The position numbers were made by a program, and so were the translations under genes. 64,000 nucleotides of DNA, from assembly GCF_963921235.1 (NCBI RefSeq), contig NC_086097.1, positions 80,850,001-80,914,000 of the forward strand. Reading direction: 5' to 3'. The notes beneath the pieces were generated by a model, which saw only the letters and a program-made list of their open reading frames with translations, ran no database searches and had not been told where the DNA came from. The first letter of the stretch is position 1; each line of letters opens with the position of its first letter. Below are positions 9,692 to 64,000 of this stretch, one piece after another. The stretch comes from Mobula hypostoma (Eukaryota).

Positions 9692-11204
9692 ATTAGCTAC
9701 ACAAACAAAATGGTGGAGGAGCTCAGCAAGTCTGGCAGCATCTAAGGAACTAAATAACAGTTGATGTTTCAGCCAAGATGCTTCGTCAGTACTGGAAAGG
9801 AAAGAGGAAGTACTTAGAAATATGAAGGCAGGGGGAGGGAAGGAGTACAAGCTCAAAGGTGATAGGAGAAGGCAGGTGGATGGGGGAGGGGTGAAGTAAG
9901 AAGCTGGGAGGTGATAGGTGGAAAAGTTAAAGAGCTGGAGAAGAAGGTATCTGAGTGGAGAGGAAAATGGACCACATGAGAAAGGGAAATGGGGGGGCAC
10001 CAGGATGAAGTGATAGTCAGGTGAAGAGAAGAGGTAAGAGGGGGAGCCAGAGTGGGGATTTGAAGAAGAGGGAAGGGGTAGGAGGAAAACTACCAAAAGT
10101 TAGAAAATTCAATGTTTATGCCATTAGATTGCAGGCTATCCAGATGGAATATGAGATGTTGTTCCTCCAACTAGAGGGCGACCTCATTGTGACTGTACAG
10201 GAGGTCAAGGACAATATGTCGGAATGGGAAATGGGATTGAAATTAAAATGGTTGGCCACCGGGAAATCCTGCTTTTTTGCAAGTGGAGAGAAGATGCTCA
10301 ACAATGCAGTCCCCCAATCTACGTTGGGTCTCTTCAATGTAGAGGAGGCCATACTGGGAGCACTGGAAACAGTAGGTGACCCCAACAGATTTGCAAGTGA
10401 AGTGTTTCGTCACTTGGAAGTTCTGTTTGGGGCAGGAGATGAATGGTCCGGTATAGCACTTCCACTTGCAGGGATAAGTGGCACAAGGAAAATTAGTGGG
10501 GAGGGGCAAAAATTAGTGGGGAGGGACAAATTATAGAAGGAGCGATCCCTATAGAAACGAGAGAATGGGGGTGGTAGAGAGCTAAAGAGGTAAAGATGTG
10601 TTTGGTAGTGGGGTCCCATTGAAGCTGGCAGAAATTGCAGAGGATGACGTGCTGGATGCGGAGGCATAAGGAGTGATAGGTGAGGACAAGAAGAACTTTA
10701 TCCCTGTAAGGGCAGTGTGAAGATGATGTGAGGGTAGATGTCCATGAAATGGAAGAAATCTGAGTGAGGGCAACATCAGTGGTGGAGGAAGGGGAAGCCG
10801 ATCGTTGAAGAAGATCATTTCTGATATCCTGGGAAGGAAAGCCTTAACCTGGCACAAATGCTGCGGAGACAAAGAAACTGAGAAAAGAGAATGGCATTTT
10901 TACAGGAGGCAAGATGGTAGGAAGTATAGTCAAGATAGCTGTGGGATCAGTAGGTTTATAAAAGATAATGGTAGACAATTTGAAGCCAGAGATGGAGAGA
11001 AAGATCAAGAAAGGAGAGAGAGGTGTCAGAAATGGACCTAGTGAATTTAAGGGCAGGGTAGAAGTTAGAAGCAAAGTTGTTAAAATTAATTAGCGCAGCA
11101 TGGGTGAATGAAACAGCACCAATGCAGTCATTAGTAGAATATAGACAGAGTTGGGAGCATTACCAGTGAAGGCTTGAAACATGGCCTGTTCCAAGCAGCC
11201 AGTA
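9692..11204 (-). mobile_element. Penelope-like element remnant (RT C-terminus, GIY-YIG endonuclease, pyrimidine-rich 3' region, hammerhead terminus)
   Basis: ORF CKSVGVTYCFQCSQYGLLYIEETQRRLGDCIVEHL is GIY-YIG-like. A decayed YIDD-region lies near 11130. The terminus matches other PLE ends. The element appears to resume at about 12653-12695, after a CR1 insertion. Confidence 0.85.
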
Positions 11205-14040: not shown

Positions 14041-14214
<174 letters not shown>

Positions 14215-14777
14215 TTAGGAAAGTAGGCTCTCACAATATTTAAACACAATTCACAAATACAAATGAGGGAAATCAGTAAATATGTCTTAAAGATAGTGTA
14301 ACAATCGCTATCGTTTTCTTTCAAATTTGTTTAGTCTCCCCCCCCCCTCCACATCATGTAACGCCAATCACGGACCTGCCTGCTATCTCAACAGTTATTA
14401 CACGTGAGCTGACATCATCCGATCCATCTTAGCAAAAGCAGCTCTTAGGAGTACTTCCAAAACAAGTGAACAACTTTAAGGAAACCACAATTCAATAATG
14501 CACTGGAAGTGAATGCCCACAATGACGAGGCAAGGTAATACAATATGTACTCCATGTATAAAAGCACGTTCTTTTGTGGCTCTTCCATAGATGCTGCTGG
14601 CGTTACTTTGATGGGTTCAGTGGGATTTAAAACCAATGACCGAGCAGAGGCGGGTTAAAAAAAAATACCGCCAATCCAACAAAAATGCCAAGGAATGAGC
14701 AAAAGGTTATGAAGTCAGCAATTCACTACCAGCAACTCCACGATCACTTATTCTCATGGGAGCAGTGAAGGGCAATT

Positions 14778-15556
14778 ACTGGAAATTCGAGAAATCAATG
14801 CTCATGCCACCAAGTTGGAGGCTATCCATACAGGATACAAGGTGCTACTCCTCCAACCTAAGTGTGGCCTCACTGTGGCAGTAGAGGTGGCCGTGGGCTG
14901 ATACGTCAGAATAGGAGTGGGAAGTAGAATTGACGTGGGTGGCCATCAGCAGATCACGCTTTTTCTGGCGGATGGAACGTAGGTGCTCGGCAAAGCGGTC
15001 TCCCAATCTACGTTGGGTTTCCGCAATATACGGGAGGCCACACCAGGAGCAGTGGATTAGTAGATGACCCCAACAAACCCCACACTCAGGTTGGAGGAAC
15101 AACACCTTATATTCCATCTGGGTAGCCTCCAACCTGATGGCATGAACATCAATTTCTCGAACTTCCAGTGATTGTCCCCCCTTTCACCATTCCCCATTTC
15201 TTTTTTCCTCTCTTACCTTTTCTCCTTATCTGCCATCACCTCCCTCAGGTGCTCCTCCCCTTCCCTTTCTTCCATTGTCTTCTCCCCTTTCCTATTAGAT
15301 TCCCCCTTCTCCAGCCCTTTATCTTCTTCACCTATCAGCTTCACAGCACTTTGCTTCACCACTCCCCCCCCTCCCGATTTCATCCATCACCTACCACCTT
15401 GTACTTCTTCCTTCCCTCCCCCCACCTTCTTACTCTGACTTCTCAACTTTTCTACCAATCCTGATGAAGGGCCTCGGCCTGAAGCGCGGATTGTTTACCC
15501 TTTTTCATAGATGCTGCCTGACCTGGTGAGTTCCTCCAGCATATTGTGTGTGTGGC
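14778..15556. mobile_element. PLE with a 5' inversion: GIY-YIG segment on minus (about 14778-15082), 3' end on plus (about 15083-15556)
   Basis: The minus-strand ORF reads CSWCGLPYIAETQRRLGDRFAEHLRS. The GTAGCCTCCAACCTGATGGCATGA segment is present in both orientations. Confidence 0.85.
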
Positions 15557-15689
15557 TAGAATGTTATATTGCTAGCATCTGGGAATATGATGGATTGGAA
15601 TTAAGAATAGCGAGTTTGATTGAAAATTATAATCTAGTTGAATTCTTCTGTGAAGTTACATGACCATAATTTGGCTCATCAGTCCTGAT

Positions 15690-18184: not shown

Positions 18185-19225
18185 GGTTCTGGCACTAAGT
18201 TTCGCTCTGTGGCTCAGAAAGGAAGGGGGTTGAGGAGTTGGGTATAGCGATAGGCAATTCAAAGGTTAGGGAGGTTCTGTGGATGAGAATAAGATGATCT
18301 GTTGCCTCCTGGATACCAGGGACTGGGACATATTGGATCGAGTCCATAGCATTCTTAAGTGAGAGGGTGAGCAATCAGAAGTTATGGTCTGTGTCGGTAC
18401 CAATGGCATGGGTAGAAAGGGTAACGAAGTCCTGTAAAGTGAGTTCAGGGAGTTAGGTGCAAAGTTAAAACACAGGACCTCCAGGGTTGTGATCTCAGGA
18501 TTGCTACCTGTGCAGGTGTGGCCAGAAATAGGAAGATAATGCAGTTTAACACATGGCTGAGGAGATGGTCCAAGAGGGAGGACCTGATTTTTGGATCATT
18601 GGGCTCTCTTCTAGGGAATGTGGGACCTGTAAAGATCGAATGGTTTGCATCTGAACTGGAGGGGAACTAACAGCCATTGGGAAGGTTTGTTAATGTTGGT
18701 AATGGTTTAAACTAGAGTTGCAGGAGGATGGGAACCAGAGTGCCAGAGCAAATAATGGAGCGGTTGTGGGAAAAGCTCATAAGCTAACATAAAAAAAGTC
18801 AAAATTCCAGAAGTTGAACATGGTGGGACTAATGTCATGAGTTGCATATATTTCAATGCAAAGAGTATTGTAGACACAAAATAATCTGCAGATGCGGGGT
18901 CCTGACGAAGGGTTCCGGCCCGAAACATCGACTGATCTTTTCCACGGATGCTGCCCGATCTGCTGAGTTCCTCTAGCGTGTTAAGAGTATTGTAGGAAAG
19001 GCAGATGAGCTTAGCGCATGGATCAGCATGTGGAATTATGACATTGTAGCCTTAGTGAGATTTGGTTCAAGGAGGGGCAGTACTGGTAGCTCAATGATCT
19101 GGGACTCTGTTGCTTTATGCATGATAGAGTGGGAGGGATGACATTACTAGTCAAGCAGAATGTCATGGCAGTGCTCAGATATGACAGATTGGAGGTCTCG
19201 TCTACAAGGATATATAGGTGGAATC
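18185..19225 (+). mobile_element. CR1 5' portion: ORF1 esterase-like remnant and start of the ORF2 endonuclease
   Basis: Decayed IGDSIVRG/CLPGA/VVISGLLP-type ORF1 segments. CIYFNAKSIVGKADELSAWIS is restored when the insertion at 18874-18982 is removed. Confidence 0.8.
18874..18982. mobile_element. 109-bp inverted PLE-terminus insertion containing a hammerhead motif
   Basis: 13-bp TSD AAGAGTATTGTAG at 18861-18873 and 18983-18995. Core CTGACGA...GAAACATC at about 18902-18929. Confidence 0.9.
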
Positions 19226-21300: not shown

Positions 21301-23109
21301 CTTGTGAGGATTGAGAGAGGAGAGCATTAGTACTGCCCCATTTGCAAGTTCAATTCAGTCAAATTCATTCACAAACTGTTCAATCTGCACAGCTTAGGCT
21401 TTAAGAATTTATAAATGATCAATAGATGACAAAATAAAAATCCTCTGTGCATTCAGCAAAACTATTCCATCAGACAGATTATGGATTTATATGACAAAGG
21501 GGGAATTACATTTTTAAAAATGTCAAACAAGTATTACTAACCATCATGAAGAGATGACAACTTGCAGAGCCCTTCAGATGAAGAAATTAATGTGATTTGC
21601 AAAATATCAAAAGGTATTTATCAAATGTGGTAGCTTAACAATGGAGACATTATTATATTATCAGTATTAACAGTTGTATATTAAATCCATTTTTCAGTGG
21701 AGATAAATAAAATATTACCAACAAAACTAGCTGGATCTGGCTCCAAATGAAACCTTTAGTTTTAGGATAGAGTTTTAGTAGCTAAAATCTTCAAATAAAC
21801 ATTTTCTTAAATTTATTTGCAGGGGAAAACCCCTGCTTAAATAGTGTACTTACCATGGCATCATTTTAAACAGCAATATTTTTGACTATTGAGCATTATG
21901 GGATTTATTCCAAGTTTACTGGAAATAAAGACAGCACACTCTGGCACCGGACACACTGTAGATTAAAGTGTATGCCAGTCTCTGTCCTTCTTTCTGGAAA
22001 AACTGGTTTTCAAGTGAACAACATCTGCTGAGCTACTGAGTTACTCTATCTTGCTAACGCCAATGGGTCTCATTTTTGCCTGCCTCTTGGTGAGATATGA
22101 AGCATTACTTATTCCATTCCTACTCAGAATCCCCAGCTCTTTATCTCCATATTCAATGTTGACAGTTGTAGCAATATCACTTCCGACTCTTCTTTTAGAA
22201 TTTCAAAAATATTGCATGCTGCCCTCCCTTCACCAAGTCTTTCCTTCCTTATCATGTTTCACCATCTCTAATGCTATCATCTAGAATCTACTACAATCCC
22301 CAATGACGCTCACAACTATCCTCCATCCCTATTCCTATGAAGGAACTTCTACATCCTCTAAGTTTCTCTCTTCATGCATCACCCATGGAATATGCAGGAA
22401 TTTAAAGTTGATTATATTTGGAGTCTTTAAGAACACATATTTAGCATACATACATGTTCAACATATGTATGTACACATGGATACACCGACGCATGCTGAA
22501 TATGTTTACTAATTATTCAGGGGAGCATAAGTGGTAAAAGACTCATTCACATGTGTACTGCAGCATCCAGTCAACCCATCTCCAGTCTTTTTGTATGCAT
22601 CCCATGAATTAACTGTTCACATTCCCATCCCTACCTGAGGCCTTCTCCTTTGATCTTTTGTCCTCTCACTTTCTCACTTTACTTTGCTACCACTTAAGAA
22701 ATTCTCCACCACTCAAAACCTGTCACAATATTTTCAAATTGCCACAATTGGCCACCGATTTGTAACATTCTGATGGTCCATGTCCTGATTGGCATTTCCC
22801 ATGTTCTGCCTTTACATCAGACTTCTAGCATTTGCTGTTTTTTGTGTTTCTTTTGTTTACACTAAAAAGATTGTAAATGTTAACGTTTAGTCATGTTTTC
22901 ACTTTAGCCTAAATGAGTTGCAAGTAGCACAGGCAACAATTGTGCAGGGCAGAACTCACTTTGGCAAGCAAGAGGCAAAAGAGTGCAATAAACTCTTTAC
23001 AATTTACCCTGTCAAAAACGCCATCTCCTGCATTTTAATTCCAGGGGATTCAAAAAGGGTTGTGCCTTATCTGATGTTGTTTCCCTGGGAGTATCTACTC
23101 AACATTCAA

Positions 23110-24045: not shown

Positions 24046-24370
24046 ATTTTAAATCTGTGTCTCCTGTTTCACTCATTGGGTCCTTGAACCTGGTCTCCCA
24101 TGTTACACTACTGTAGAACAATCCAGAATCCATGGATGAACTGGGAGAACCACTCTGTTTTAAAGTCGAGAACTGCAGCATTCAAATCAGATAACCCTGA
24201 GAATTACAAGAAATCAAGCTTAACCCCTCCAATCACATTCTTCACAAAAAAAAAGCTACCAGCAGTGCTAAGAGTCCAGCCATCAGCTGTGGCAGGACTT
24301 ACAAACTATATTAGGTTACAAAATAAAGCTGGGCATCACTGTCAACAACTGTAAACCCCTTAAATTATTA

Positions 24371-24906
24371 CAAACATAAGAAAATCTGCAGATGCTGGAA
24401 ATCAAAGCCACATACACAAAGTGCTGGATGAACTCAGCAGGCCAGGTAGCATCTATGGAAAAGTGTAAACAGTCGACATTTCAGGTCAAGACCTCTCACT
24501 AGGACTGGAGAGAAAAAAAAAATGAGGAGTTGAGTTAAAAGGTGGGGGGGGGGAGAGGAGGAGAAGGGAGAAACACAAAGTGATAGGTGAAACTGGGAGG
24601 GGGTGAAGTAAAGAGCTGGGAAGTTGATTGGTGAAAGAGATACTGGGCTGGAGAAGGGGTGAAATTGAATAGGAAAGGACAGAAGGCCATGGAAGAAAGA
24701 AAAGGGGGTGGGAAGCACCAGCGATGGGCAGGCAAGGAGATAAGGTGAGAGAGGGAAAAGGGGATGGGGAATGGTAAAGGGGGGGAGGGGCATTACTGTA
24801 AGTTTGAGAAATCAATGTTCATGCCATCGGGCTGGAGGCTACCCCGACGGAATAAAAGGTGTTATTCCTCCGACCTGAGTGTAGCCTCATCGTAACAGTA
24901 GAGGAC
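24371..24906 (-). mobile_element. PLE 3' end (end of GIY-YIG ORF, pyrimidine-rich UTR, degenerate hammerhead, terminal extension)
   Basis: It matches the reverse complement of 15083-15556. Confidence 0.85.
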
Positions 24907-25125
24907 TGTCGCGATAAGATATGAACATTGAATTTTCCAATATCATTCTCACCCACACCCACATACCCGCCCACACACATTCACACACACACTTATGTTT
25001 TCTCTCTCTCTTTGTTCACATTTGTTTCTCTTTGTTGCAAGATGACACCAGAGCTCTTTGCAGAACCACTTGTCACTTCTTTCGTAATCGTTCTACTCAC
25101 TTAAATCTAAATGGAATGTCTCTAA

Positions 25126-27349: not shown

Positions 27350-27876
27350 TTTCAAGTCGTCACTTTTTATTGTCATTTTGACCATAACTGCTGGTACAAT
27401 ACACAGTAAAAACAAGACAATGTTTTTCATGGTGCTACATGAACAATACACAAACTACAATGAACTACGTAAAAAACAACACAAAACTACACTAGACTAC
27501 AGACCTACCCGGGACTGCATAAAGTGCATAAAACAGTGCAGGCATTACAATAAATAATAAACAAGACAATAGGCACAGTAGAGGGCAGTAGGTTGGTGTC
27601 AGTCCAGGCTCTGGGTATTGAGGAGTCTGATGGCTTGGGGGAAGAAACTGTTACATAGTCTGGTCGTGAGAGCCTGAATACTTTGGTGCCTTTTGCCAGA
27701 TGGCAGGGCGGAGAGGAGTTCATATGAGGGGTGATTGGTGTCCTTCATAATGCTGTTTGCCTTATGGATGCAGCGTGTGGTGCATCAGGACGAAGGGTCT
27801 TGGCACGAAACATTGACTGTACCTCTTCCTATAGATGCTGCCTGGCCTGCTGCGTTCACCATTTTTTTGTGTGTGT
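27350..27876. mobile_element. Rex/L2-group 3' end (minus, to about 27783) fused to a PLE terminus (plus, about 27786-27876)
   Basis: The reverse complement has an LPSGKRYRS-like segment and AATAAAAAGTGACGACTTGA. It is followed by GACGAAGGGTCTTGGCACGAAACATTGACTG. Confidence 0.75.
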
Positions 27877-28688
27877 TAGTAGGAATTATACCAAACTTTG
27901 GAATTGAGTTGCAGTTGGTATAGAAGTTCAAAAATTCATTTAGATTTGGACTTGGAAATGGTCTCTTCCATTTCCTTTCTAGATAACCTCATACTGGTAA
28001 ATAAAGATATAGATAAAATAAACTCATATTAAGCTAATTTTGGCATCGTCATTTATGGTGTTTAAATTTGAATAAATGTGTACCAGATTTAAAACAGGTG
28101 TTGGTGCTGAGCAAAACTGATAAGGGTCTCTACCATTGACAGCTATTTGAAAATACTACATGTGCTAGTTTCAGTTTTTCAGAACAAATGGGCTTAAATT
28201 TTCAGTTTACATGGATCATAAAAAAATTAACATTATCCCTCCTCAACCCTAAGTATAGAATTTCTTTAATAAAATTTCATGCTGGCAATAAGTGACAACC
28301 ATGCAGAAATATCACTCATTTATCTTGCTTTAACAATTTATTTTTGATTTACATTATGCTTGTAAGTAGAAAACTGAACACTCCCATCCTTTGTTGAATG
28401 TGTTGATCAGTGCGATAATGGTGATGACCTTGTAAGACAATGGTAAACTTTGATAAGATGAAGTCACCTTGCTGTGTGTGTATTGGTGAATACTGATTTC
28501 AATTTGGTTACATTTTATAGCCTGGGTTCATCAGATGGTGGAGACGGGGAGCCTGCTACAAGGGCAACAACTTGCTCTCCATATTGTACTGTCCTGGTTG
28601 CATATCTAGACAGCTAGGACATAACATCCATGGTCAACCCTGATCAATGGAGGCTTTATAGAGACTGAAATATAATGCATCTTGGGAG

Positions 28689-29014
28689 CACGAGGAAATC
28701 TGCAGATGCTGGAATTTCAAGCAATACACATTCTCTGAATTTCCCCTCCTCCCCCTTTTCTTTCTCCCTCGGCCTCCTGTCCCATGATCCTCTCATATCC
28801 CTTTTGCCAATCACCTATTCAGCTCTTGGCTCCATCCCTCCCCCTCCTGTCTTCTCCTATCATTTCCGATCTCCCTCTCTCCCTGCCACTTTCAAATCTC
28901 TTACTAGCTCTTCTTTCAGTTAGTCCCGACGAAGGGTCTCGGCCCAAAACGTCGACTGTACCTCTTCCTAGAGATGCTGCCTGGCCTGCTGCGTTCAACA
29001 GCAACTTTTATGTG
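28689..29014. mobile_element. PLE 3' end with a short inverted arm
   Basis: Imperfect 13-bp TSD TGCATCTTGGGAG / TGCATCTCGGAAG. Mutated hammerhead at about 28922-28958. Confidence 0.8.
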
Positions 29015-29351
29015 TGCATCTCGGAAGAAAAGTTATTTAAAAATAATGCGTACTTGATAACACATTTAGTAGAAACTAAACAAAATACTCCAAAATTGAA
29101 TGAAAAATATAAAACACTCATGAATTCAAGTCTTAATAATAAAAAAGGCATTTGCAAGGTGTAAGATCCCAGAAGATTTCACCATGACATCATGATGATA
29201 AGGCCAGGTGTAGTCTAATGATTCTATTATTGTGCAAGTGCTGTGAATGGGCTGCTATTACAATATTAGATGGAGTAAAGACTGTTGTTTTAAGAATTTT
29301 TTGAAAAGAACAGCTTGCCAGAAATGCACACAGGCTAAGAAATGTTCTTAC

Positions 29352-29598
29352 CCGATAATTGGATGCCTGAAGCCCAGTTTTTTGGTTGCCTCTTCAATTT
29401 CCTTCTCTAGCCATGACTGTGGGCGTATTAAATATTTGACAAACTGTGAGACCCACCAGACTGAGGGGTCTCCATGTAGGTGAGTTAATCGATCTGCAAG
29501 GTCTTCAGGAATAGCCAAGGGCAGATATGGTGGTCGTGGATGAAGGCTATCAACTATTGGCAGTTCCACCACTTGGACATTCTTATCATTGGTCTCAC
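29352..29598 (-). CDS. FUT8: FUT8 internal coding exon (247 nt): (G)[81 protein letters not shown](G)
   Basis: Near-identical to vertebrate FUT8 by recognition. Acceptor is tatttcAG (29599-29600) and donor is GG|GTAAG. The exon starts in phase 1, ends in phase 2, and joins the next exon in frame. Confidence 0.97.
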
Positions 29599-31194
29599 CT
29601 GAAATATAAGATTTAAACACGTGAATAATAAAGGCACGTCTTTAAAACATATATAATTATCTGCTTTTAGTATACAGTGATAACAGATGTAGAATTAGAA
29701 ATAAGAAGTGGAGAGGAAGTGCTGCCAGTGCTTTGCTTGGAATTGCAGTTAATTTAGCATCAGAAGAGACTCATTCAGGATTCAGATGGAGGTAAATAAT
29801 AGAAAGTTAAAAATGTGAAAAGAATTGTTTTTAATAAAGTGAATGAAAATGGCATTGACTTTTTGTGTTTAAAAAGATGCTTGCAATTTTGTTGGCCAAA
29901 TGACATTTTTTTTTGTTTGTCAAATGAGAATTAATTACAGGGAGCTCATTGACATCAATCTATAATAATCCTTCACGAGAGCAGCTACTGGCACATTCGT
30001 GATTATGCAGTATAGGGCAAAACTCAATGTAAACTAGCAACATACAGTAAGTATATCAAAATTAACAATTATTTCCAAAGGAAAGCTCGTTTGTCTAGTA
30101 TGCCTCTATCAAACAATTCTGACATTCTTCAAGTGAGTGCCTGGTATTGAAAATTGGGAAAAATGTTATGGAGAAACACTTCCAGTCACTGTATGGGACA
30201 AAAACTTTCTCCATCTACGAAGATCAATCACTTTTTACAAGTTTGCATTTTTCCCTTGATGACTTGATTCCACAAGTGTTTTGTGAGCTCTCAGGTGGAT
30301 TATGAGGCCAATGTAGAATATGCAGATTTTTCCACAGGGTGTGGTTGATGGGTGGGTAGATTGTGATGCGATTTACTGCTTGTTCTGTGTATTCCCAATG
30401 TAAGCACGCAAAACCCTCAATAATATCTCGTCTACTTCTCATCCATTTTGACTAGTTATGGGTTAGAGATTCCAGGAAATCAGTGAAGGCAAAGTATTCC
30501 TTCAAAAAGACTTTGAACACATCTTGATTCAGCTTCTGTACACCTGGCAGTCTCTTTCCAGATTTTGGGAGTCTAGTGTTCAGCAGGTGGTACAGCTTCA
30601 ACATTCAAAGTAAATTTATTATCAAAATACTTATATCTTGTGTCATCATATACCACCTTGTGATTCATTTTCTTGCAGGCATTCACAGTAAAACAGAGAA
30701 ATACAATATAATCAATGAAAATCTACACTTAATAAAGACTGAGAATCAGCTAATGTGCAGAAAAAGACAAACTGAAAATAAATAATACTGAGATCACGAG
30801 TTGTAGAGTCCTTGAAATGTGACTCCAGAAGTTGTGGGCACTGTTCAGCGATGTGTTAGTGAAATTATGCATAACCTCAACCAATTTACATTGGCATGCA
30901 CTACTGTTCACTGACATAGGCTGGACAATACGGTCATGCACTAAACCATCAGAAATGAAATAATTTTAAGAAATGACTATGTCATAAATCAATGTATCTT
31001 TTAACTTGGTTACTTTTTGAACTTCAAAAACAACCAGCTAAGTTATTTTGTTCCTTTGTAATTCAATGTAATGGTAGTGTTATAAAGCTGACATATTATT
31101 CAAATATAGAGTGAAGACAAAACAGTAGAAAGATCGGTTTAAACTTTGCTCCAGCAAATGATACTGTGCTTCATGGATAGGAACCAATGCTTAA

Positions 31195-31305
31195 TAGTCA
31201 TAGTCATACTTTATTGATCCCGGGGGAAACTGGTTTTCGTATGGTGCAACTGTAACGAAAACCATTTTCCCCCGGGATCAATAAAGTATGACTATAACTA
31301 TGACT
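31195..31305. repeat. 111-bp palindrome of two outward-facing LINE 3' tails
   Basis: The left arm is the reverse complement of ACGAAAACCA(T/G)TTTCCCCCGGGATCAATAAAGTATGACTAT.ACTA. It is flanked by CTTAA at 31190-31194 and 31306-31310. Confidence 0.85.
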
Positions 31306-36025: not shown

Positions 36026-36250
36026 AAAGAGAAAATCTGCAGATGCTGGAAATCTGGGCAACACACACAAAATGCTGGAGGAACTCAGCAGATCAGGCAG
36101 TATCTATGGAAAAGAGTAAATACTCACTGTTCCGGGTCAATGTTTTAGGCCTCCTGAAGAAGTGTCTCGGCCCAAAACAATGATTGTTTACTCTTTTCCA
36201 CAGATGCTGCCTGACCTGCTGAGTTCCTCCAGCATTGTGTGTGTGTTGCT
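36026..36250. mobile_element. Two-armed inverted PLE termini (fold-back)
   Basis: 36058-36121 is the reverse complement of 36186-36249 with few mismatches. Confidence 0.85.
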
Positions 36251-39200
36251 TTTGATTACAATGCTGAGGGAGATAGGGAGGTGTAAGAGTGTTTGGGAAG
36301 TGAGGGGTAGGAGATGATGGGAGAGGCAGGAAAGAGGCCTGGAAATAAGTATGAATGGTTCTTTTAAATAGAGAAGCTATTTAACTTCTGGAATAGGGAC
36401 TTGGTTCAAGCAAGGATGTTGGCTACATAATGTAAGGATTTTGTGGCTATTCACCCATAGGGGATTCATCAACCGAATTTCAAGAAAAGTGAATGAGGTA
36501 AAATCATGAATTCTTGTTATGATATTGTCCCAGGCTTCTCACAAACAGCAGGAGAAAAATCAATCAAATAAAAGCAACACACTCTGGAAATCATAATGGA
36601 TTGTATTGTTTGGAACAATGCAATCTACATTACTATTGATTATTTTTGCAGTGAAATTTAAAAGAAAGCAATTTTATTCTGTCATTTGCGCACTATGGTT
36701 AATGAAGTTATGCCTGCTGTAATGAATAAGGTGATTTACTCGATAATGCAACTCTGCGTAGAATCCTCCTTGACCCCTCCCCCAACACTTGTGCTCGATC
36801 TACTTTCAGTCCCTTTTCAAACAGATGCCCTGTTGCGAAAGAATTTTTTTCTTCTGTGGCTTGTTCTACATTTTGTGTAATAGGAAACTCAATCCCTCAT
36901 TTCTGACAGTTGGCTGGTTACTATTTTATAAAAAGATCTTCCCTTCCTGAGGTGCACTTGACACTTACTGTTCTTAACTCATTGCCTTGGAAAGATACAC
37001 AACTCTGTGGTATGCTCATCCATTGTAGAAGGTGTCAAGGTGAAGAACTCCTTTGTAGCCCAGAACAGATGGCTCCTTCGGTCAATGACAAATGTAACAG
37101 TAAATATTATTCACAAAAGATTTATAATTCCTTATATTTTATACGGAATTCAGATTCAATAATTCATCTCACGGGACTTCATCTCTCACTTTACAAAAGG
37201 TTTTTCCTGAGATAAGCATGTTTAAAATTACAATAGACAAACAGTTATAGCTGGACTAACTGTTCAGAAGCTTGAATAAGGTTCCAGTTTAAATCCCACC
37301 TTGGCAGCTGAAAAACTCAATAAGATATACCTGGAGTTCAGAAACTGGTACCTTTCTTGGTAACCGCAAAACTACCAGATTGTTGTAAATATGTATCAGG
37401 TTTATTACCAACCTTTAGGGAAACAAACCAGCTATATTTATCTGGTCGAGCCTGTTACAACTCCATTTGGGATAACTTCATTTAAAGACTCATTTTCAAG
37501 GACTCTTCATGTCATGCTCTCAATATTTATTGCTTATTATTATGATTATTTCTCTTTTGTATCTGCACAGTTTTGTTGTCTTTCTGCATTGGCTGTTTGC
37601 CCTGTTGGGTATAGCTGTTCACTGATTTTATTATGACACTTGGATATTCTGAGTATGCTCGCAAGCAAACAAATCTCAGGGTTGTATATGGTGACATATA
37701 TGTACTTCGATAATAAACTTTGAACTTTTAACTTGAACTTTGAATGTGGCGGACACTAAGGTGCCCTCTGAAATGGCCCTGCAATCCACACACACAAAGT
37801 GCCAGCAACACTTACATCCCTTACATGAATAAAAGACTCAAGATAAAAAAAGCCAGAGAATCAAGCAGGTAGCCATTTTGACAAGCAAGCAGGAAATCCC
37901 AGGTAATGCCATTGGATGGAGTCCTTTACTTAGAAAAATACTTTTTCCTGAAGCACAGAGCAGAGGAAAACAGTATTTCTGCCAAATCATTGTAACAGGC
38001 AGAAACAGGGAGCTGAAACATCTCAGGGGACCTGTTTTTGAAGGAGATGTTATTTCAGAAGGTTTATAGTATGGACCTAATGAGGTTGTGAGAAAATGAA
38101 TTACCAGACTGGAGCATGAAATTACTACAGGTTTCAGGCACCTTCAAGAAGCTTCGATAGTAATCAGAAAAAATATGAAAAAAACTTGGGCCGAAATGGT
38201 ACAAAAAAGGATAGGGAAATAGGGAACGCTCTACAACTCAGGGTTCTATAATAGGAATATCATTAACAATGAAACATAAATGATTCGTGAAATTATCATG
38301 TACAACATCTATATAAAGTACGTGGAAATTGATCCAGGGTGGTTAGTGTTTTCAAATGCTGTGACTGATTGATACTACATTTAAAAAACTCAACTACTAG
38401 TCAATTACAAAGATGACATCTGTTCCAATAGCTCATTGTTCTTGGCCTGCCTAAGAACAATTAACAGGGAAAGACTGGAGGGCCACAATGAATCCGTTGT
38501 TCACAGTAACACAAATCTGCTGCCCAGTCAAGTGAGCAGATCAGTGGCGTCCTGATGACCTGAAAGCACAGGGAGCCTAGTTTCCTTGTGGCTTCCACTG
38601 CTGTTCATCGCTGCTCCATCAATTGTGCTGACAGAGCCAGTGTTTGAGCTCCTTGTCGGGAATATCAACAAGATTATCTCAGCAAGAGTATAATAATTAA
38701 AGGTACATTTCAGATTCCAGGTGGATAGAGTAATTAGTCAAATATTTTGGTTCTAGCATAATTTTATTTAAAATTGTACTTTGACCTAGAGCTTAACAAT
38801 TCTTCTTCATGTAACCTCTTCTTTCCATTTACATTATATAAAAGTTTCTCCCCAGAGCATGTCCTTGCAGTCTTAACCCCAAGACCTGAAGGGTGTGGTT
38901 TAAGGTCCTACACTTAGAAAAGATGTCCCTATTTTTTACCGACCAACATCCACCACAATCCAACAGACTTCCACGGCTGCCTTGAATGCACTTCCTCCCA
39001 ACCTGCTTTCGGTAAGAACTCCACTCCATTATCAGTTCCTCCATCTTCATTAAAGTGAACCACTTTAGAATGTAAGACCAGATGACTTAACGTGCAGTTA
39101 AAATCAGATTAAGCTTCTGTTGCTAATGGTAAGGCTGCAAGATGTGTTCAGAATGTCAGATTATACAACCGGGAAAAAGAGAAAACAAACCAAAAGGATG

Positions 39201-39397
39201 GCACATAGAAGAAGCAAGTTCTGGCACAGACGGAAAAAGTGAGTTATTCAAGGTTGGAGCATTTCATACTAAATCCCACAAGTTGCAAGTGCCCAGATGA
39301 AGAAATGAGATGATGTCCCTTTGGCATGTGTTGTCTATTTTATAACAGTACAGGAGATCAGAGACAAAAAGGTCAAACTGAGATAGTGAATTAAAAT

Positions 39398-39693
39398 CCC
39401 ATCCTCTGGGTCACCCCCCCCCCTCCTTGTCTTTCTTCCCGGACCTCCTGTCCCATGATCCTCTCGTATCCCCTTTTGCCTATCACCTGTCCAGCTCTCG
39501 GCTCTATCCCTCCCCCTCCTGTCTTCTCCTATCATTTTGGATCTCCCCCTCCCCCTCCAACTTTCAAATCCCTTACTCACTCTTCCTTCAGTTAGTCCTG
39601 ACGAAGGGTCTCGGCCTGAAACGTCGACTGCACCTCTTCCTATAGATGCTGCTTGGCCTGCTGCGTTCACCAGCAACTTTTATGTATGTTGTT
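39398..39693 (+). mobile_element. Young PLE 3' end inserted into an older, oppositely oriented PLE (about 39230-39770)
   Basis: 14-bp TSD TAGTGAATTAAAAT at 39384-39397 and 39694-39707. Confidence 0.9.
39594..39630 (+). ncRNA. Minimal type-I hammerhead ribozyme motif, intact core
   Basis: AGTC-CTGACGA-A-GGGT(CTCG)GCCT-GAA-ACGT-C-GACT. Predicted cleavage is after GUC at 39625. Confidence 0.75.
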
Positions 39694-40221
39694 TAGTGAA
39701 TTAAAATGGCAGGCAGCACAGGTGCTCCACAAAGCAATCACTCAATTTCCTTTTAGTTTCTCCAATGGAGAGATAGTCTCTAAAATTGTTGTCCCCTCGT
39801 CCTTGGGTGATATAATCTATTCTAACTCACCTGTTCCTCTACTCTTCTCACTATTCTTTAATGCTCCTTAAATATCCCTTCATTTGAGCCCCAACCCATA
39901 CTTATGGTCACCCACTCAAGACCATCATCTCCCACAACCACCCTCCCATGGTTCTGACAACCAACAAGGGCACTCCAACTATGCCTTATCCTTGATAGCT
40001 GTGTTTTAATGAGGCCAGCTCTTCCTTGTTTATGTTCAACTTTGTAACAAAATCTTCCCCCTAACTTTCAAGTGTCCATTGCTCTTTTCTAGCATCTTGT
40101 TTTTTGATTCCACTTGCCATAAACGTTCTGCTCCTGTCAGTCTGCTCAATTATTATTACACTTACAAATCTAACGATCCCACTGGCCAATCCTTACTCTC
40201 ACACACGGGGCCACTGTATAT

Positions 40222-46004: not shown

Positions 46005-46245
46005 AGAGACACAAGACGCTGCAGATGCTGCAAACTGGAGCAACAAACAAGATGAGGGAGGGATCTCAGCAGGTCAAGCAGCAGCTGTGGGGTGGGGGAA
46101 GGAGGGGAATAGACAGTCAGTGGTTCGGGTTGAGACCCATTCATCTGGACTGATTCCAGATGAAGAGTCTCGACCCAAACTATTGACTGTCCATTCCCCA
46201 TCCCAGGAGCTGCCTGACCCACTGAATTCCTGCAGCACCTCGTTC
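46005..46245. mobile_element. Older two-armed inverted PLE termini
   Basis: Two diverged hammerhead-bearing arms meet head-to-head near 46152. Confidence 0.75.
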
Positions 46246-48737: not shown

Positions 48738-48945
48738 CAACAACACAAAATGCTAGAGGAACTCAGCAGGCCAGGCAGTATCTATGGAAAAAGTACAGTC
48801 GACGTTTTGGGCCGAAACCCTTCACCAGTCCTGCTCGAAATGTTGACTGTACTTTTTTCATAGATGCTGCCTGGCCTGCCGAGTTCCTCCAGCATTTTGT
48901 GTGTGTTGCTCGGATTTCCAGGATCTACAGATTTTCTCTTGTTTA
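48738..48945. mobile_element. 208-bp two-armed inverted PLE-terminus insertion
   Basis: TSD TATAAAAGTGAG at 48726-48737 and 48946-48957. The arms are mutual reverse complements over about 65 bp. Confidence 0.9.
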
Positions 48946-56740: not shown

Positions 56741-58727
56741 ACTGTATGGGCTGTTCTCAGAAACACACAAGGAGGCAAACATCAACCGTTGCTGGAGAAC
56801 TAGGGTACAAACTTGGCAGAGGTACAAGGAAGGAGTGCAGCCCTTTAGATAAGGGAGGATGTAACAGCAGTAGGTAGAACAACACTCTTGGGAAATTGTC
56901 CAGTGAGGCCACAGGGGTAGAACTTAGAAACAAGAAAGGGAGAATCACTTTAGTGCAGCAGTATATTGTCCACCCCCCTCCCCATAATCAGTAGGAACTT
57001 GAGGCACAGGCATGTAGAGAAAGTGTTCATACTTGTGTAATAACAGATTAGTGGGAGATTTTAATTTCCACAATATAGACTGGGTCACCCAGAGTATTAA
57101 AAGCCTCAAATGTGTCCAGGGAAGTTTCCCGAGTCAATATATAGGGGGTGCAATATCAGATCTCCTCTTAGGGAAGGATTCTGGGCAAGTAACTGAACTG
57201 ACAGTCAGGAAATAGTTTGGCTCCAGTAACCATAATTCTATCAGTTTTAAGATATTGATGGAAAAGGACAGGAAAGGTCTACAGTTCAGCATCCTAAACG
57301 GGAGCTGGTCTAATTTTGGTGGGATTTAGGATCTAGCAGAGGCCGATTGGGTGAGGAGCCTGTTTGAGGGAAAGGAATGAATGGAAAGTGTGATAGAAAG
57401 TGTCCAGGCACAGCCTGTTCCTGTTCAGGAGAAGGGTAAACATGGTAAGCTTAGGAAGCTTGGTTGATGAGAGCAGACATTGAGTTTAGGAGCTTGATAA
57501 CTATATAAAGATAAGGAATACTCTTAAGAGGGAGGTTAGGAAGTCAACGAGAGGGTATGAGATAGATCTGGCTGGTAAAGCCAAGGAAAATTATAAAAAG
57601 TTCTATAGCTATATTAGGAGTAAATTGATAGCTAGGGAGGGATAGGTCCCGTTAGAGATCAGCAGGGCCATCAATGTCCTGAGCCACAAGATTTTAAAGG
57701 AATAATTCTCCTCTATGTTTCCAGAGGACAAAATCATGGTCGCTCAAGGGATAAGGGAAAAAAGGGAGATACTGTATTTTGGAAGACATTCATAGCACTA
57801 GCGAAAAAATATTTACAGCCTCATTATGCATTAAAGTGGAGAAATCCTCAGGGCCTGACTGAGTGCATCCTCAGATTTCGTGGGAGCCTAGAGAGGAAAT
57901 TGTGGAGGCCCTTGTGAAGATATTTTCCTTCGTTGTTAGCCACTGGTGAAGTTCCTGAAGACTAGAAGGTTGTTAATGCTGATCCATTGGTTACAAAGGG
58001 TAGTAAGGTCAAGCCAGAAATCTGCAGGCCGGTCATGCTCAGTAGTGAGGAAGTTACCGGGTGGGGAATTTTGAGGGACAAGATCTACCAGTATTTGAAT
58101 AGAGACAGTCTGATTAGAAGGTGTTAGCATGGCTTTGTGCATGGGAAGTCAGTAACGTTTGGTCTCATGGAATCCAGGGACAGCTAGTTAGTTGTATTCA
58201 AAACTGTTTTGGAGGAAGGAAGCGGAAGATGGTGGTTGAAGGCTGCTTCTCCGAATGGAGGCTCGTAGCCAGCAAGGTGCGATAGGGGTCATCATTGCTG
58301 GGATCCTTGTTCATCATTCTTTATATGAATAATCTGGATACAAATACACTGGCGCAGTTTCTGATGGTCACTAAGTTGGTGAATGACATAAAATTTAGGT
58401 GTTATTGTTGGTAGCTAGGGAAGTGGACTGAAGAGTGGCAAATTGATTTCAATACAGGCAAGTGTGAGGTGGTGCACTTTGGAAAGACAAACCAGCATAA
58501 GACTGGTTTTAACATAAATTTAAAGGCACCAGGGACTGTAACAGAACAGAGGCCCCTTGGGATACAACTGCATAGTTTGTTGAAAGTAGCATCACAGGTA
58601 GACAGGCTGGTGTAAAATGTGCTCATCAATCAGGCTATTGAGTACAAAAAGCGTGGCATTATGTTACAACACACATAAAAGTTGCTGGTGAACGCAGCAG
58701 GCCAGGCAGCATCTCTAGGAAGAAGTG

Positions 58728-58765
58728 CAGTCGATGTTTCAGGCCGAGACCCTTCGTCAGGACTA
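58728..58765 (-). ncRNA. Hammerhead motif in FUT8-sense orientation, helix III variant (ACAU instead of ACGU)
   Basis: The reverse complement is TAGTC CTGACGA AGGGTCTCGGCCT GAAACATC GACTG. Confidence 0.6.
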
Positions 58766-58991
58766 ACTGAAGGAAGAGTGAGTAAGGGCTGAGAGGAAGA
58801 TGGAGCCTCTGAGGGCCCAGGAGCTGACGGTGGGATCTGAGGGAGACGGAGTTGCAGAATGGTGGTGGGGGAAGGGGAGACGGGAGTCACAATAGCAGCA
58901 CATAAAGATCCGGCCTGGAGTTCAAGGCTGGAGTCGCAGTTGGTGGTTGCGCAATCACTTTGAATGTCTCTTACTCACTCTTCCTTCAGTT

Positions 58992-59028
58992 AGTCCTGAC
59001 GAAGGGTCTCGGCCTGAAACGTCGACTG
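58992..59028 (+). ncRNA. Minimal type-I hammerhead ribozyme motif, intact core
   Basis: CTGACGA at 58996-59002, GAAA at 59016-59019, predicted cleavage after GUC at 59023. Stem I is AGTC/GACT. Confidence 0.75.
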
Positions 59029-59315
59029 CACCTCTTCCTAGAGATGCTGCCTGGCCTGCTGCGTTCACCAGCAACTTTTATGTGTGTTGCTTGAATTTCC
59101 AGCATCTGCAGAATTCCTGTTGTTGGCATTATGTTAAAGTTGTTTAAATCGTTGGTGAGGACACACTTAGAGTACTGTATAGTTTTCACTGCTCTATTAT
59201 ACAAAAGATGTAGTTACACTGGAAAGAGTGCAGAAAAGATTTACAAGGATGTTGCAAGAACATTTTTGTTACATTGTTACAAGAATGTTACTGGAAGACT
59301 TCAGTTATAGGGAGA

Positions 59316-62300
59316 GATGGCAGTCAGAAATTACAATCAGTGGAATGAGTTAAAGTGTAGCAGGGGGCCAAATTCAAAAAGAGTGATGAGTACAGGACTG
59401 AAGGTGTTATATTTGAATGCACACAGTATACAGAATAAGATAGGTGATCTTGTAGCACAGTTAGAGATTGGCAGGTATGATGCTGTGGCATCACTGAGTC
59501 GTGGCTAAAAGAAGATCATAGTCGGAAGCTTAATATTCAAGAATACACATTGTATCAAAAAGATAGACAGGTAGACAGAGGGGGTGGGGTGGCTCTGTTG
59601 ATTAAAAAAAATGAAATCAAATCCTTAGAAGGAGGTGACATAGGATCGGAAGATGTAGAATCCTCGTGGGTAGAGTTAAGAAACTGCAATGGTAAAAAGA
59701 CTCTGATGGGAGTTATGTACAGGCCTCCAAACAGTAGCCAGGATATGAGCTACAAATTACACTGGGAGACAGAAAAGCCGTATAATAAGGACAATGTTAT
59801 GATAGTTGTAGGGTATTTCAATATGCAGATAGATTGGGAAAATGAGCTTGGTGCTGGAGCCCAAGGGAGGGAACTCGTAGAATCCCTATGAGATGGCTTT
59901 TCAGAGTATCTTGTGGTTGACGGCAAAAGGAGAATGGTAATTCTGTATTGGGCGTTACATAATGACCCAGATTTGATTACGGAGTTTAAGGTAAAGGAAC
60001 CCTTAGGAGACAGCGATCATAATATGATAGAATTCATGCTGCTGTTTGAGAAGGAGAAGCTAAAATGAGTTGTATCATTATTACAATAGTGTAAATGGAA
60101 ATACCAAGGCATGCGAGAAGAGCTGGTCAAAGCTGATCCAAAGGGGACACTGGCAGGAATGTCAGCACAACAGCAATAGCAGGAAATTCTGGCAGCAAGT
60201 CAGAGGGTGCAAGAAAGATACTGTACATTCCAAAGATGAAAAAGCATTGTAAAGGGAGGATACGGAAACTGTGGGTGACAAGGGAAGTTAAAGACAGCAT
60301 AAAAGCAGAAGAGAGGGCATATAATATAGCAAAGATTAGTGGGAAGGTAGAGGATTGGGAAAATTTTAAAAGCCATAAAAAGAGAAAAGATTAAACATGA
60401 AGGTAAGCTAGCCAATAATATAAAAGAGGATACAAGAAGTTTTTTTCAGATACATAAAGAGTAAAAGAGAGATGAGAGTGGAAATCACAGCACTGGAAAT
60501 GACAGTGGAGAGGTAGTAATTAGGAAAAAAGAAAAGGTAGACAGACTTAATAAGTATTTTGTGTCAGTCTTTACTGTGGAAGACCACTAGCAAAATGTCA
60601 GAAATATGAGTGCCAGGGGCAGAAGTGAGTGTCATTGCTATTACTAAGGAGAAGGTGCTTGGAAAGCTGAAAAGTCTGAAGGCAGGTAAGTGACATGGAC
60701 CAGATAGACTGCAACCCAGGGTTCCGAAAGAGGTAGCTGAAGAGATTATGGAGGCAATAGTAATAGTTTTACCAAAAGTCATGAGATTCTGGAATGGTTC
60801 TGGAGGACTGAAATATTGCAAATGTCACTCCACTTTTTAAAGAAGGGAGGGAGGCAAAACAAAGGAAATTATAGGACAGTTTCCAATATGGTTGGAAAGA
60901 TGTTGGGGTCTATTATTAAGGATGAGGTTTTGGGGTACTTGGAGGCACGTGATAAAATAGGTCAAAATCAGCATGGTTTCCTTAAGGGGAAATCTTGTCT
61001 GACAAATATATTGGAATTACTTGAGGAAATAACAGGCAGGATAGACAAAGGAGAGTTAATGGATGCCTCTTATTTGGATTTTCAGAAGGCCTTCGACAAG
61101 GTGCCGCACATGAGGCTGCTTAACAAGAACCCATGGTACTACAAGAAAGATACTAGCATGGATAGAAGAATGGCTGACTGGCAAGAGGAAAAGAGCGGGA
61201 ATAAAGGGGGCATTTCCTGGTTGGCTGCTGGTGACTAGTCGTGTTCACAGGGATCAGTGCTGAGACTGCTTCTTTTCACATTATATGTCAATGATTTGGA
61301 TGAAGGAAGTGATGGCTTTGTGGCCAGGTTTGCAGACAATATCAAGATAGGTAGAGGGCAGATAGTGTTGAGAATGCTGGGAGTTTGCAGAGCAGTGGTC
61401 CCCAACTGCTGGGCCACGAACTGGTACTGGGCCGCGAGGAAACAATATGATTGGCGATATGAAATGATATGAGTCAGCTGCCCCTTTCCTCATTCCCTGT
61501 CACACACTGTTGAAGTTGAATGTCCCCCCGGTCCACAAGAATATTGTCAACATTAAGCCGGTCCGCGGTGCAAAAAAGGTTAGGGACTCCTGTTGCAGAA
61601 GGATGTAGACAGATTGAGAGAATGGGCAAAGAAGTGGCACATAGAATATATGAAGAGAAGTGCACAGTCACGCACTTTGGTAGTGGAATATTTTCTAAAT
61701 GGAGAGAAAACTCAGAAACCAGAGCTGCAATTAGAATTCATTCACTAAAGGTTAATATGCAGATTGAGTCAATGGTAAGATAGGCAAATGCATTGTTAGT
61801 ATTCATTTTGAGTGGACCAGAATATAAAAGCAAGGCTGTAATGCAGAGGCTTTATAAGGCATTGGTTAGACAACATTTGGAGTATTGTGAGTAGTTTTGG
61901 CCCATTATCGAAGAAAGGATGTGCTGGCATTGAAGAGGGTCCAGAGGAGGTTCACAAGAATGATCCCAAGAATGGTAACATACGAGGAGTGTTTGATGAC
62001 TCTGGGCCTGTACTCCCCGGGGCTTAGTAGAATGAAAGGGTATCTGATTGAAACCTATTGAATATTGACAGACCTAGATAGAGGGTACAGTCTTAAAATA
62101 GAGGGACATCCATTTAGAACAGAGAGGAGGAAAAACTTCTTTAGCCATAGAAGGTAAATCTCTGGAATTCATTGCCACAGACAGCTGTGCAACCAAGTCA
62201 TTGGGTATATTTAAGGTGGAGGTCGATAGGTTCTTGATTAATCAGGACATCAAAGATTACGGGGAGAAAGCAGGAGGATGGGGTTGAGAAGGATAATAAA

Positions 62301-62365
62301 TCCGACACGATGGGATGTTGGAGCAGACTTGATGGGCCGCATTACCTAATTACACTCCTTATGGT
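59316..62365 (+). mobile_element. CR1 LINE spanning ORF2 (degraded), nested in the older CR1
   Basis: Segments LKVLYLNAHSIQNK, GGGVALLIK, YRPPNS, QHGFLKGKSCLTN and FADNIKIG. The 3' UTR is GATGGGCCG...TTATGGT. Confidence 0.9.
61393..61592 (-). mobile_element. 200-bp hAT/Charlie-like MITE (uninterrupted copy)
   Basis: TIRs CAGTGGTCCCCAAC / GTTAGGGACTCCTG. TSD TTGCAGAG / TTGCAGAA. It is homologous to the outer parts of 43392-44436. Confidence 0.9.
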
Positions 62366-63784
62366 AATAAACCCTTCCCCAGGCAGGAAAGACCAGAGTT
62401 GAGGGGCAAGGATTTAGGGTAGGAGGGGAAAGATTTAAAAGGGACCTGTGGAGCAAATTGACACAGAGCGGTGAGGACATGGAATGAATAACTATAGGAT
62501 GTGGTTGAGGCAGTTACAATAGCATCATTAAAGAGGCACTTGGATAAGTACATGTGGGAGATAGGTTCAATGCAGGAAATTAGGACAAGCTGAGTGCACA
62601 CCATGGTGGAATGGACTCTATGTTCTGAAGGAGCTGTATCCATGAGTATTGGTCTATGACTGTAACTATCAGCTCAATGAAAGATACCCTCGTCTGCCTG
62701 AAACACAGTGGTCATCTAGAACCTGGTTATGCCTGACTTAAAGACTCCAAGTGAGTGCATCTAATCTCAGTTACCTATTGAAGCTGTATGCACTCACTGC
62801 AATGGAGCACGACCACAGTTTAAGGGCCAACAAATAACTAGCTGGAGGAATTTACCAAGTCGATCAGTGTCTGTTTGGGGAAAGGGAACTGTGGACATTT
62901 CAGGTTGAAACCCTGCATCAGATTCCAGCATCTGCTGTCTCGTGTCTACATTTCAAGACCCTCCTTTTAACGCACACTGTAATCAGTGTCAAAATTCAAG
63001 GGTTATATTTCAATGATGCTAAGCGCTTGGAATAACATGACTGTGTTGAAACCATTAACTTAATTAGTTTGTTTTCTGGACATCTGAAATGTTTATGAAC
63101 TACATTTTGAAATTAATTAGGTTTCATTAGTGCTGTGATTTCCTGCTCCTCCACAAGGGTCCTGCTGGCACAAGACCATTGGAAAGTTGTTGATGAGGAT
63201 CTGGACAGACATGGCACATTGCATGTTACTGTAAATGTTCATGACATTAATGTGCCAGATACACCAAGGAACTGGAATGAACACAGATCGTGAAACTTTC
63301 CCACTAATGCCTGAACAATATTGCTTCTCCGTTTCTTTGAAATTTGATTGCATCATTTAGAAAATTGTGGTGCACTGCAATTCAATTTCTAGGCCTACAT
63401 CCACCCAGTATATCATGATTGGGAAGAAGGTACCCTTTTTCCAACTTGTATTATTCCCCAATATCTTGATAAGAGTCAGAGCACTACCAACTACATTGTG
63501 TGTTGAAGCTCTCCAACAGAGTAGGATTATTAATTCCACACAATGTCATCAGTCGAACCTCATGGACATTTAAAGCCAGTTTACAATCCCAGTGAGTGGG
63601 AGAACAATTCAACTCGCGGTGAATTCTTCAGTGACAACAAAAGATACATAGAATGTCACAGAAGACTATATTACTGCAAACACTTGCCTTTCACAGGCCA
63701 GTTCTACCTGTGGAAAGTTTTCTTAAGACTTTGATTTTTCTTAAAATCCAAAAACAAAATCAAAGAAATGTTTGGACACCATAA

Positions 63785-64000
63785 CCACAAGAGGCTCTGC
63801 AGATGCTGGAAATCTTGAGCAACACAGAATTCTGAAGGAACTGTGCAAGTCAGGCAGCACCTATGGAGAGGAATAAACATTCAACTTTTTGGGTGAGACC
63901 CTTTATCAAGAAAAGAAAGGAAGAGGGTAGAAGCCAGAATAAGAAGGTGGGGGAGGAGAAGGTGTACAAGCTAATCTGTGATGGGCAAGACCAGGTGGAG
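63785..64000 (-). mobile_element. PLE 3' terminus running off the window edge
   Basis: CTGCAGATGCTGGAAATC extension, a decayed hammerhead, and a purine-rich tract. Confidence 0.8.

Follow-up and report, generated by a model that had tools for sequence, protein, structure and literature searches.

Introduction

A 37-nt motif that recurs in a 64-kb stretch of ray DNA (hereafter the window, meaning the whole stretch analysed) raises the question of whether it is a hammerhead ribozyme carried by a retroelement and whether its dispersed copies can cleave RNA where they sit. The first-pass annotation had read it as a minimal, dimer-type hammerhead in the ends of Penelope-like elements (PLEs) and had expected a very large genome-wide reservoir of self-cleaving motifs in this lineage. 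According to our analysis, the motif is very probably a minimal hammerhead that lies in the terminal repeat of a PLE, likely one of the Neptune type, whose copies are truncated, likely descend from uncleaved RNA, have decayed at CpG sites and are predicted not to cut in place.

Results

The hammerhead motif

The focal motif (Table 1) follows the published order of minimal hammerheads, namely helix I, CUGANGA-N, helix II, GAAA, a loopless ACGU and GUC, and its intact copies, 58992-59028(+) and 39594-39630(+), are the same 37-mer with no difference between them. A search of the window with a strict type I descriptor, which the first-pass annotation had suggested for the whole genome, matched twice, against no match in 300 dinucleotide shuffles, and RNAalifold on 10 window copies returned helices I and II exactly, with 9 pairs, one of which carries a two-sided change (in the 15457 copy). 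The annotated order of stem I, CUGANGA core, stem II, GAAA and GUC is thus confirmed, as are the two intact copies and the reduction of helix III to a loopless palindromic ACGU, at 59019-59022 and in the 39594 copy. A profile search of the window matched 24 pieces of the repeat end, which include by construction the 8 copies from which the profile was made and two matches with E>0.1; the reversed window gave none. Rfam covariance models run on the window and the locus matched no hammerhead family, in our reading because helix III is missing, and the miRNA matches corresponded to inverted arm pairs.

Helix II is closed by G-U instead of G10.1-C11.1 in the focal copies, and C at 11.1 accounts for 60/76/21/35% of depth in four related public runs. 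The three youngest copies share U at this position (59015, 39617, 58741). U also predominates in runs X1 and X4 and is the less frequent base in X19 and X20, which points to the likely amplification of a master copy whose closing pair was G-U.

Table 1. Features of the window, with positions counted from its first nucleotide.
Feature	Position	Strand	Remarks
Minimal type I hammerhead, intact	58992..59028	+	descriptor, RNAalifold, core/palindrome tally
Helix I	58992-58995 with 59024-59027	+	additional U-G 58991/59028
C3-A9 (CUGACGA)	58996-59002	+	followed by extra A 59003
Helix II	59004-59007 with 59012-59015	+	loop CUCG, closed by G10.1-U11.1
GAAA	59016-59019	+	
Palindrome A15.1-C-G-U16.1	59019-59022	+	no loop
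C17	59023	+	predicted cut 59023/59024
Splice-acceptor-like stretch 5' of helix I (putative)	58972..58993	+	sequence; branch-like motif, pyrimidine tract, CAG 58987-58989, TAG 58991-58993
Acceptor-like tract 3' of motif (putative)	59029..59046	+	sequence; pyrimidines, AG and ATG
PLE insertion, two head-to-head arms	58667..59123		13-bp TSD on both sides
Left TSD, 13 bp	58654..58666	+	
Right TSD, 13 bp	59124..59136	+	identical to left
5'-truncated arm with intact motif	58957..59123	+	~30-bp tail at ~59093-59123
Inverted arm without tail	58667..58786	-	118/120 bases identical to + arm
Hammerhead copy	58728..58764	-	core intact, palindrome broken by CpG decay (ACAU)
Spacer within insertion, 170 bp	58787..58956		
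Second intact motif	39594..39630	+	descriptor, core/palindrome tally
Solo PLE end, 5'-truncated, without tail	39398..39693	+	14-bp TSD 39384-39397 / 39694-39707
Longest PLE remnant	9694..11155	-	decayed RT core/thumb, cysteine linker, GIY-YIG endonuclease, 3' UTR, motif
Motif in longest remnant	9758-9793	-	core intact; palindrome and pair 2.1-1.1 broken
Inverted endonuclease piece joined to 3' end	14770..15561	+	
Dead motif	15457-15493	+	3 core changes; compensatory A-U pair in helix I
Short insertion, inverted tail piece and arm starting in helix I	18874..18982	+	13-bp TSD
Motif with intact core	18898	+	palindrome broken
Endonuclease end, 3' UTR, dead motif, tail	24370..24915	-	motif 24470-24506
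Arm truncated within core	27788..27877	+	begins at G5
Inverted tail piece and arm	28690..29016	+	dead motif 28922-28958 (U4, G12 changed)
Head-to-head pair, joined within hammerhead	36027..36252		motif at 36150 dead
Old head-to-head pair, palindromic junction at helix I	46015..46237		two motifs, both dead
Head-to-head pair, joined within hammerhead	48738..48945		12-bp TSD; motif at 48796 dead
Old copy, newly located	62831..62945	-	dead
Old copy with tail, newly located	63783..64000	-	dead
FUT8 exon	29351..29602	-	aa 278-361 of P0152
FUT8 exons	21123-21308 and 14041-14196	-	

The carrier element and its locus

Judged by its sequence, the carrier of the motif is a PLE. The 89-aa linker/endonuclease frame at 10246-10512(-) has 357 relatives at E<=0.001 in an exhaustive protein search, the two best being Hypanus sabinus gene models and the closest named ones stingray proteins. 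With tblastn, PLE coding remains were mapped on the upstream side of this repeat end in four places, 9694(-), 15561(+), 16497(+) and 24370(-), and in the long copies the motif lies ~300 nt 3' of the GIY-YIG stop. The decayed remnants match full-length RT and GIY-YIG proteins, no intact ORF being present within the window, and the inverted pLTR, the ~30-bp tail and the target-site duplication (TSD) were all found among the copies. Together with the fold, which fits the published consensus, these coding remains bear out the annotated assignment of the minimal dimer-type hammerhead to PLEs. Pfam searches of the 134 window ORFs of >=80 aa returned no PLE domain directly; what they recovered was one FUT8 exon and fragments of LINE-type RT/endonuclease. 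Neither a full-length element nor a tandem pair occurs within the 64-kb window.

A C-x2-5-C-x2-C linker is complete in the ray gene models P0001 and P0002 and in distant homologues and is partly decayed in the window. Such a CX2-5CxxC linker between RT and EN marks the Neptune and Nematis PLEs (PMC8557442), and being common to both it does not separate them; the element is likely of the Neptune type. Translated pieces of the repeat or of the PLE ORF also occur in the ray gene models P0271, P0272, P0273, P0001 and P0002, and models with PLE pieces that are named after host genes (STARD3NL, CoA synthase, 'mucin-2') likely reflect exonisation or annotation artefacts. At 15680-16497(+) lies a PLE fragment from which the 3' UTR and hammerhead have been deleted, so that the endonuclease stop stands almost directly at the tail.

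Three exons of FUT8 (alpha-1,6-fucosyltransferase) are 94-98% identical to a named stingray protein, the best matches being those of Mobula and Hemitrygon; since all three are on the minus strand and no neighbouring exons occur, the remainder of the window is likely intronic. Together with the Hypanus sabinus matches of the PLE frame, these FUT8 matches point to a myliobatiform ray as the likely source of the DNA. The focal insertion lies among other repeat DNA, and decayed LINE-type RT/endonuclease copies occupy 1378-2670, 4726-6010, 11256-12622, 52185-54133 and 59481-62350. An ~89-bp near-perfect inverted repeat at 31203-31291, unrelated to the PLE, is possibly a small DNA-transposon relic.

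Insertions and copies in the window

All 13 sites listed in the first-pass annotation are present to within a few bases, and two further motif-spanning copies were located at 62889-62925(-) and ~63880-63915(-). As separate copies the 13 do not stand: the sites 58728 and 58992 belong to the inverted arms of one insertion, as do 46114 and 46152, and the 13 sites therefore amount to 11 insertions. The focal case is clear from its 13-bp TSD, which flanks the paired arms and makes 58728(-) and 58992(+) one event on opposite strands; its spacer (58787-58956) had no useful match elsewhere in the window or among the 273 proteins compared. Similarly, the placement of the motif at the element end holds in that it lies within the 3' repeat end, though ~65 or ~95 nt inside it and not at the terminus. 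All core nucleotides are kept in 5 of the 15 motif-spanning copies and the palindrome as well in 2, so that 13/15 have lost core or palindrome; the 63880 row, mis-registered by an indel, was judged dead by eye from the alignment.

Perfect 12-15-bp TSDs flank 5 of the 18 intervals examined, and the tail is present on one arm only in 8/8 inverted pairs (read by eye). An inverted copy with a tail on one end is a published signature of PLE insertion (PMC8557442, PMC3846280), and the one-arm tail has been explained in Anolis by two internal RT start sites (PMC11167929). The predicted cut is spanned by 20/27 arms and none of the 27 starts or ends at it, which makes uncleaved RNA the likely template. 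Contig ends in the four related runs showed no pile-up at the cut, a comparison in which contigs cannot reveal RNA ends. For the Anolis PLE the template is likewise reported to be uncleaved RNA, with no RNA-seq ends described at the site (PMC11167929). Two young copies, at 28729 and 39398-39400, have a nearly equal 5' start ~195 nt upstream of the motif, possibly a preferred stop or a short non-autonomous unit.

Abundance, decay and selection

The first-pass annotation had anticipated great abundance of the motif in this lineage, and the related public runs agree: 28,518, 15,879, 6,394 and 2,497 contigs fall on 231 bp of the locus, counts that indicate a very large family and not a copy number, from runs that need not be of this species. 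Within the window the density is ~230 relics and ~30 intact motifs per Mb (one window, n=2 intact). DNA pattern scans of metagenome and viral contigs gave 0 matches. In run X20 several contigs covering 59041-59117 join the tail end back to ~59042, which suggests that this organism has a tandem unit of ~80 bp lacking the hammerhead.

In the related runs the core varies only at CpG sites. G12>A makes up 9.9/9.7/2.6/5.0% of depth, compared with 17.7/9.8/5.3/4.7% at a flanking CpG, so that G12 decays about as fast as that CpG. G8 decays more slowly: G8>A (6.4/2.8/0.7/0.7%) lies below the remaining CpG sites in each of the four runs, which hints weakly at selection and which we count against our preferred explanation. 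Among non-CpG positions, 0/9 vary in the core, against 9/15 in the adjacent pyrimidine tract (p=0.007) and 19/92 in the whole 3' flank (p=0.20). The pattern fits, and does not prove, selection on master elements followed by neutral decay after insertion.

Cleavage potential

The window copies probably do not cut RNA where they sit. Dimer formation requires two motifs on one strand; the two intact copies are 19.4 kb apart and both antisense to FUT8, and no tandem array of the unit occurs within the window. The focal copy is predicted to lie within a 120-bp inverted-repeat duplex, and the whole insertion to form one long duplex on either strand. In the bare monomer, G5-G8 are predicted to pair with C15.2-C17 (probability 0.99), and the addition of 30-nt flanks takes the probabilities of helices I and II to 0.00, in nearest-neighbour folding that undervalues hammerhead tertiary structure and ignores tertiary contacts and proteins. 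An alternative hairpin, in which the pyrimidine tract upstream of the motif pairs with the core and stem II (58978-59007), is also predicted and would exclude the ribozyme fold. A ribozyme dimer in cis between 58728 and 58992 was considered and rejected, because the arms are on opposite strands; they are predicted to pair with each other.

For the PLE minimal hammerhead, a monomer gave no cleavage and dimers and trimers little (Cervera and de la Pena, 2014; PMC4209133), the Anolis PLE hammerhead is reported to cleave only with the element's protein (PMC11167929), and of nine frog retrozyme dimers one was active and eight were inactive (bioRxiv 2026.07.22.740005).

Arm starts and splice-like sites

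The 5' ends of the arms are unevenly placed. Eleven of the 27 (8 insertions) begin at -6 to +16 relative to C3, that is, in the 5' half of the hammerhead (58990-59013 and equivalents); none starts within the 43 nt from +17 to +59, 7/27 start further downstream and 9/27 further upstream. For five of the 11 the start was set by eye, as the local alignment either ran on into the inverted arm or scored low. For the 8 insertions a binomial calculation gives ~4e-4, with the interval set post hoc. Several head-to-head junctions are palindromic, including those at 36150 and 46150.

The motif is bracketed by two putative splice acceptors (Table 1), and YAG followed by ATG after a pyrimidine tract of variable length occurs in 13/17 copies (one non-member row dropped). 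The upstream site overlaps or precedes helix I. We take both sites to be acceptor-like on the strength of the general splice-site consensus. Among 36 candidates for exonisation at the downstream acceptor were three gene models, none of which joins there; one of them, P0272, is compatible with the upstream acceptor, a weak hint, the exon borders not being visible. An acceptor-like site ahead of helix I resembles the situation in the Drosophila virilis intron (PMC4209133, PMC2377424).

Discussion

Alternative explanations

A conserved repeat end could resemble a hammerhead core by chance, and both the lack of a match to any Rfam hammerhead model and the core constancy relative to the whole 3' flank (p=0.20) would allow this; we give it almost no credence, since the complete core, helices I and II, the additional base after A9 and the palindrome occur in combination, the 300 shuffles yielded no descriptor match, and the motif sits where PLEs are published to carry hammerheads (PMC4209133, PMC11167929). 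It is scarcely more credible that the short repeats are non-LTR retrozymes, tandem non-autonomous units of 150-450 bp that make circular RNA. The units are indeed short and non-coding, with a type I hammerhead, and retrozymes derive from pLTRs and are reported in one chondrichthyan (bioRxiv 2026.07.22.740005); however, the arrangement in the window is inverted, with no tandem array, the units vary in 5' length and continue into PLE coding sequence, and the hammerhead is minimal, not canonical. As no tandem unit was found, we reject the tandem retrozyme reading for this window. Very unlikely, too, is that the dispersed copies form a large pool of working self-cleaving RNAs, which form dimers, either in cis inside long introns or in trans from one abundant transcript to another, and cut host RNA. 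Their density (15 copies spanning the motif within 64 kb, and contigs numbering in the thousands in each run), the two fully intact copies, the intermolecular pairing obtained when two bare motifs are cofolded, and a core kept in most of the depth of two putative RNA runs (possibly DNA) speak in its favour, but a 4-bp ACGU duplex is worth only ~-1.7 kcal/mol, the intact copies are distant from each other and antisense to FUT8, and folding predicts that the focal copy is held in its 120-bp duplex. The published inactivity of the monomer, the low activity of dimers (PMC4209133) and the eight inactive frog retrozyme dimers out of nine (bioRxiv 2026.07.22.740005) point the same way, and sense copies in the FUT8 introns are not depleted: orientation shows no bias (8 plus versus 7 minus), the two antisense intact copies being too few to count. 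The annotated "reservoir of self-cleaving motifs" is therefore overstated, with 13/15 copies damaged, no intact pair in tandem and the focal copy in a predicted duplex.

The fold might also work mainly uncut, stalling RT or giving palindromic microhomology and in this way fixing the 5' truncations and head-to-head junctions. The 11/27 arm starts in -6..+16 with none in +17..+59, the palindromic junctions at 36150 and 46150, and the report that Anolis insertion is unaffected by catalytic mutants (PMC11167929) are in keeping with such a role, which we nevertheless consider unlikely. The observation comes from a single 64-kb window with an interval chosen after looking, and the zone also coincides with the edge of a long pyrimidine tract and may hold a transcript start or splice acceptor, each of which could account for the clustering; furthermore, Naiad PLEs insert inverted without canonical hammerheads (PMC8557442), and catalytic nucleotides are kept across animal phyla (PMC4209133), which a mere roadblock would not need. 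A more elaborate proposal, in which the ray hammerhead acts mainly uncut, its fold marking RT stops and cDNA joins while splicing at the two bracketing acceptor-like sites decides whether the ribozyme is retained, seems to us less probable again.

We thus favour the minimal PLE hammerhead whose copies do not cut in place. By analogy with PLEs described in the literature, two motifs of a full-length tandem element would pair through ACGU and so complete helix III, and could then cleave behind GUC, though weakly or only when the element's protein is present; the GIY-YIG domain would nick AT-rich DNA, and RT would begin inside the RNA at either of two sites ~30 nt apart, copy through the uncut hammerhead and usually stop soon after. 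The dimer steps rest on those published elements, the geometry of the master element not being visible in the window's fragments.

Comparison with known systems

The ray motif shares with the PLE minimal hammerheads (Cervera and de la Pena, 2014; PMC4209133) the type I order, a helix I of 4-5 bp, the extra base between 9 and 10.1, the lack of a helix III loop, the palindromic 15.2-16.2 and the U-rich 5' flank, as well as the prevalence of solo copies and the opposite-strand pairs 100-700 bp apart. The consensus CUGANGAH-G..C-GAAAN-palindrome-NUH given there is matched, and a coral Neptune example has the equal CUGACGAA-GGG..GAAACGUC build and a similarly short helix II (4 bp in the ray). In the intact ray copies the pair closing helix II is G-U and not G-C, as it is in several of the published rows (PMC4209133). 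The local density in the ray suggests far more copies than the ~4,000 of coelacanth and ~9,000 of Xenopus (PMC4209133).

The order of RT, CX2-5CxxC linker and C-terminal GIY-YIG, the 5' truncation, the inverted 5' copy and the 30-40-bp tail on one end are those described for Neptune PLEs (Craig et al., 2021; PMC8557442). A preference for microsatellite targets is attributed to Neptune (PMC8557442), whereas the TSDs of the ray, 12-15 bp long, lie mostly in AT-rich non-repeat DNA. With Poseidon_Ac (PAc) of Anolis (Frangieh et al., 2024; PMC11167929) the ray element has in common the pLTR hammerhead, two 3' ends separated by the length of the tail, targets that are mostly AT-rich, and insertions that span the uncut cleavage site; PAc differs in belonging to the Penelope/Poseidon clade, and its tail lies ~110 nt into an ORF whose ATG falls at stem II. 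The non-LTR retrozymes (Cervera and de la Pena, 2020; PMC7229834; Li et al., bioRxiv 2026.07.22.740005) are similar in their type I hammerhead, relationship to PLEs and high copy number, with 126,247 hammerhead motifs in axolotl (PMC7229834), but are arranged in tandem arrays (PMC7229834, bioRxiv 2026.07.22.740005), of which the ray window has none.

Cartilaginous fish are absent from the 56 motifs of Fig. S3 and from Table S1 of the PLE survey (PMC4209133), and a literature search for PLE hammerheads in elasmobranchs or stingrays found none, nor any paper that links them with truncation and inversion; Neptune and Chondrichthyes appear together only in a preprint that counts retrozymes in one chondrichthyan (bioRxiv 2026.07.22.740005). 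A whale shark paper lists Penelope in passing (PMC8455134).

Conclusion

The motif itself is no surprise, because its kind has already been published; the ray is an unreported or little-reported host for it, and the window adds a cartilaginous-fish example of the PLE minimal hammerhead, none having been located in print. The role of PLE hammerheads is still called unclear (PMC8557442), and with many dated, TSD-flanked insertions per genome, counting could test template cleavage, the clustering of junctions and the purging of intact sense-strand pairs from introns. If the uncut role were true, and with copy numbers that are possibly six-figure, ray genomes would allow a direct statistical test of what the PLE hammerhead is for.
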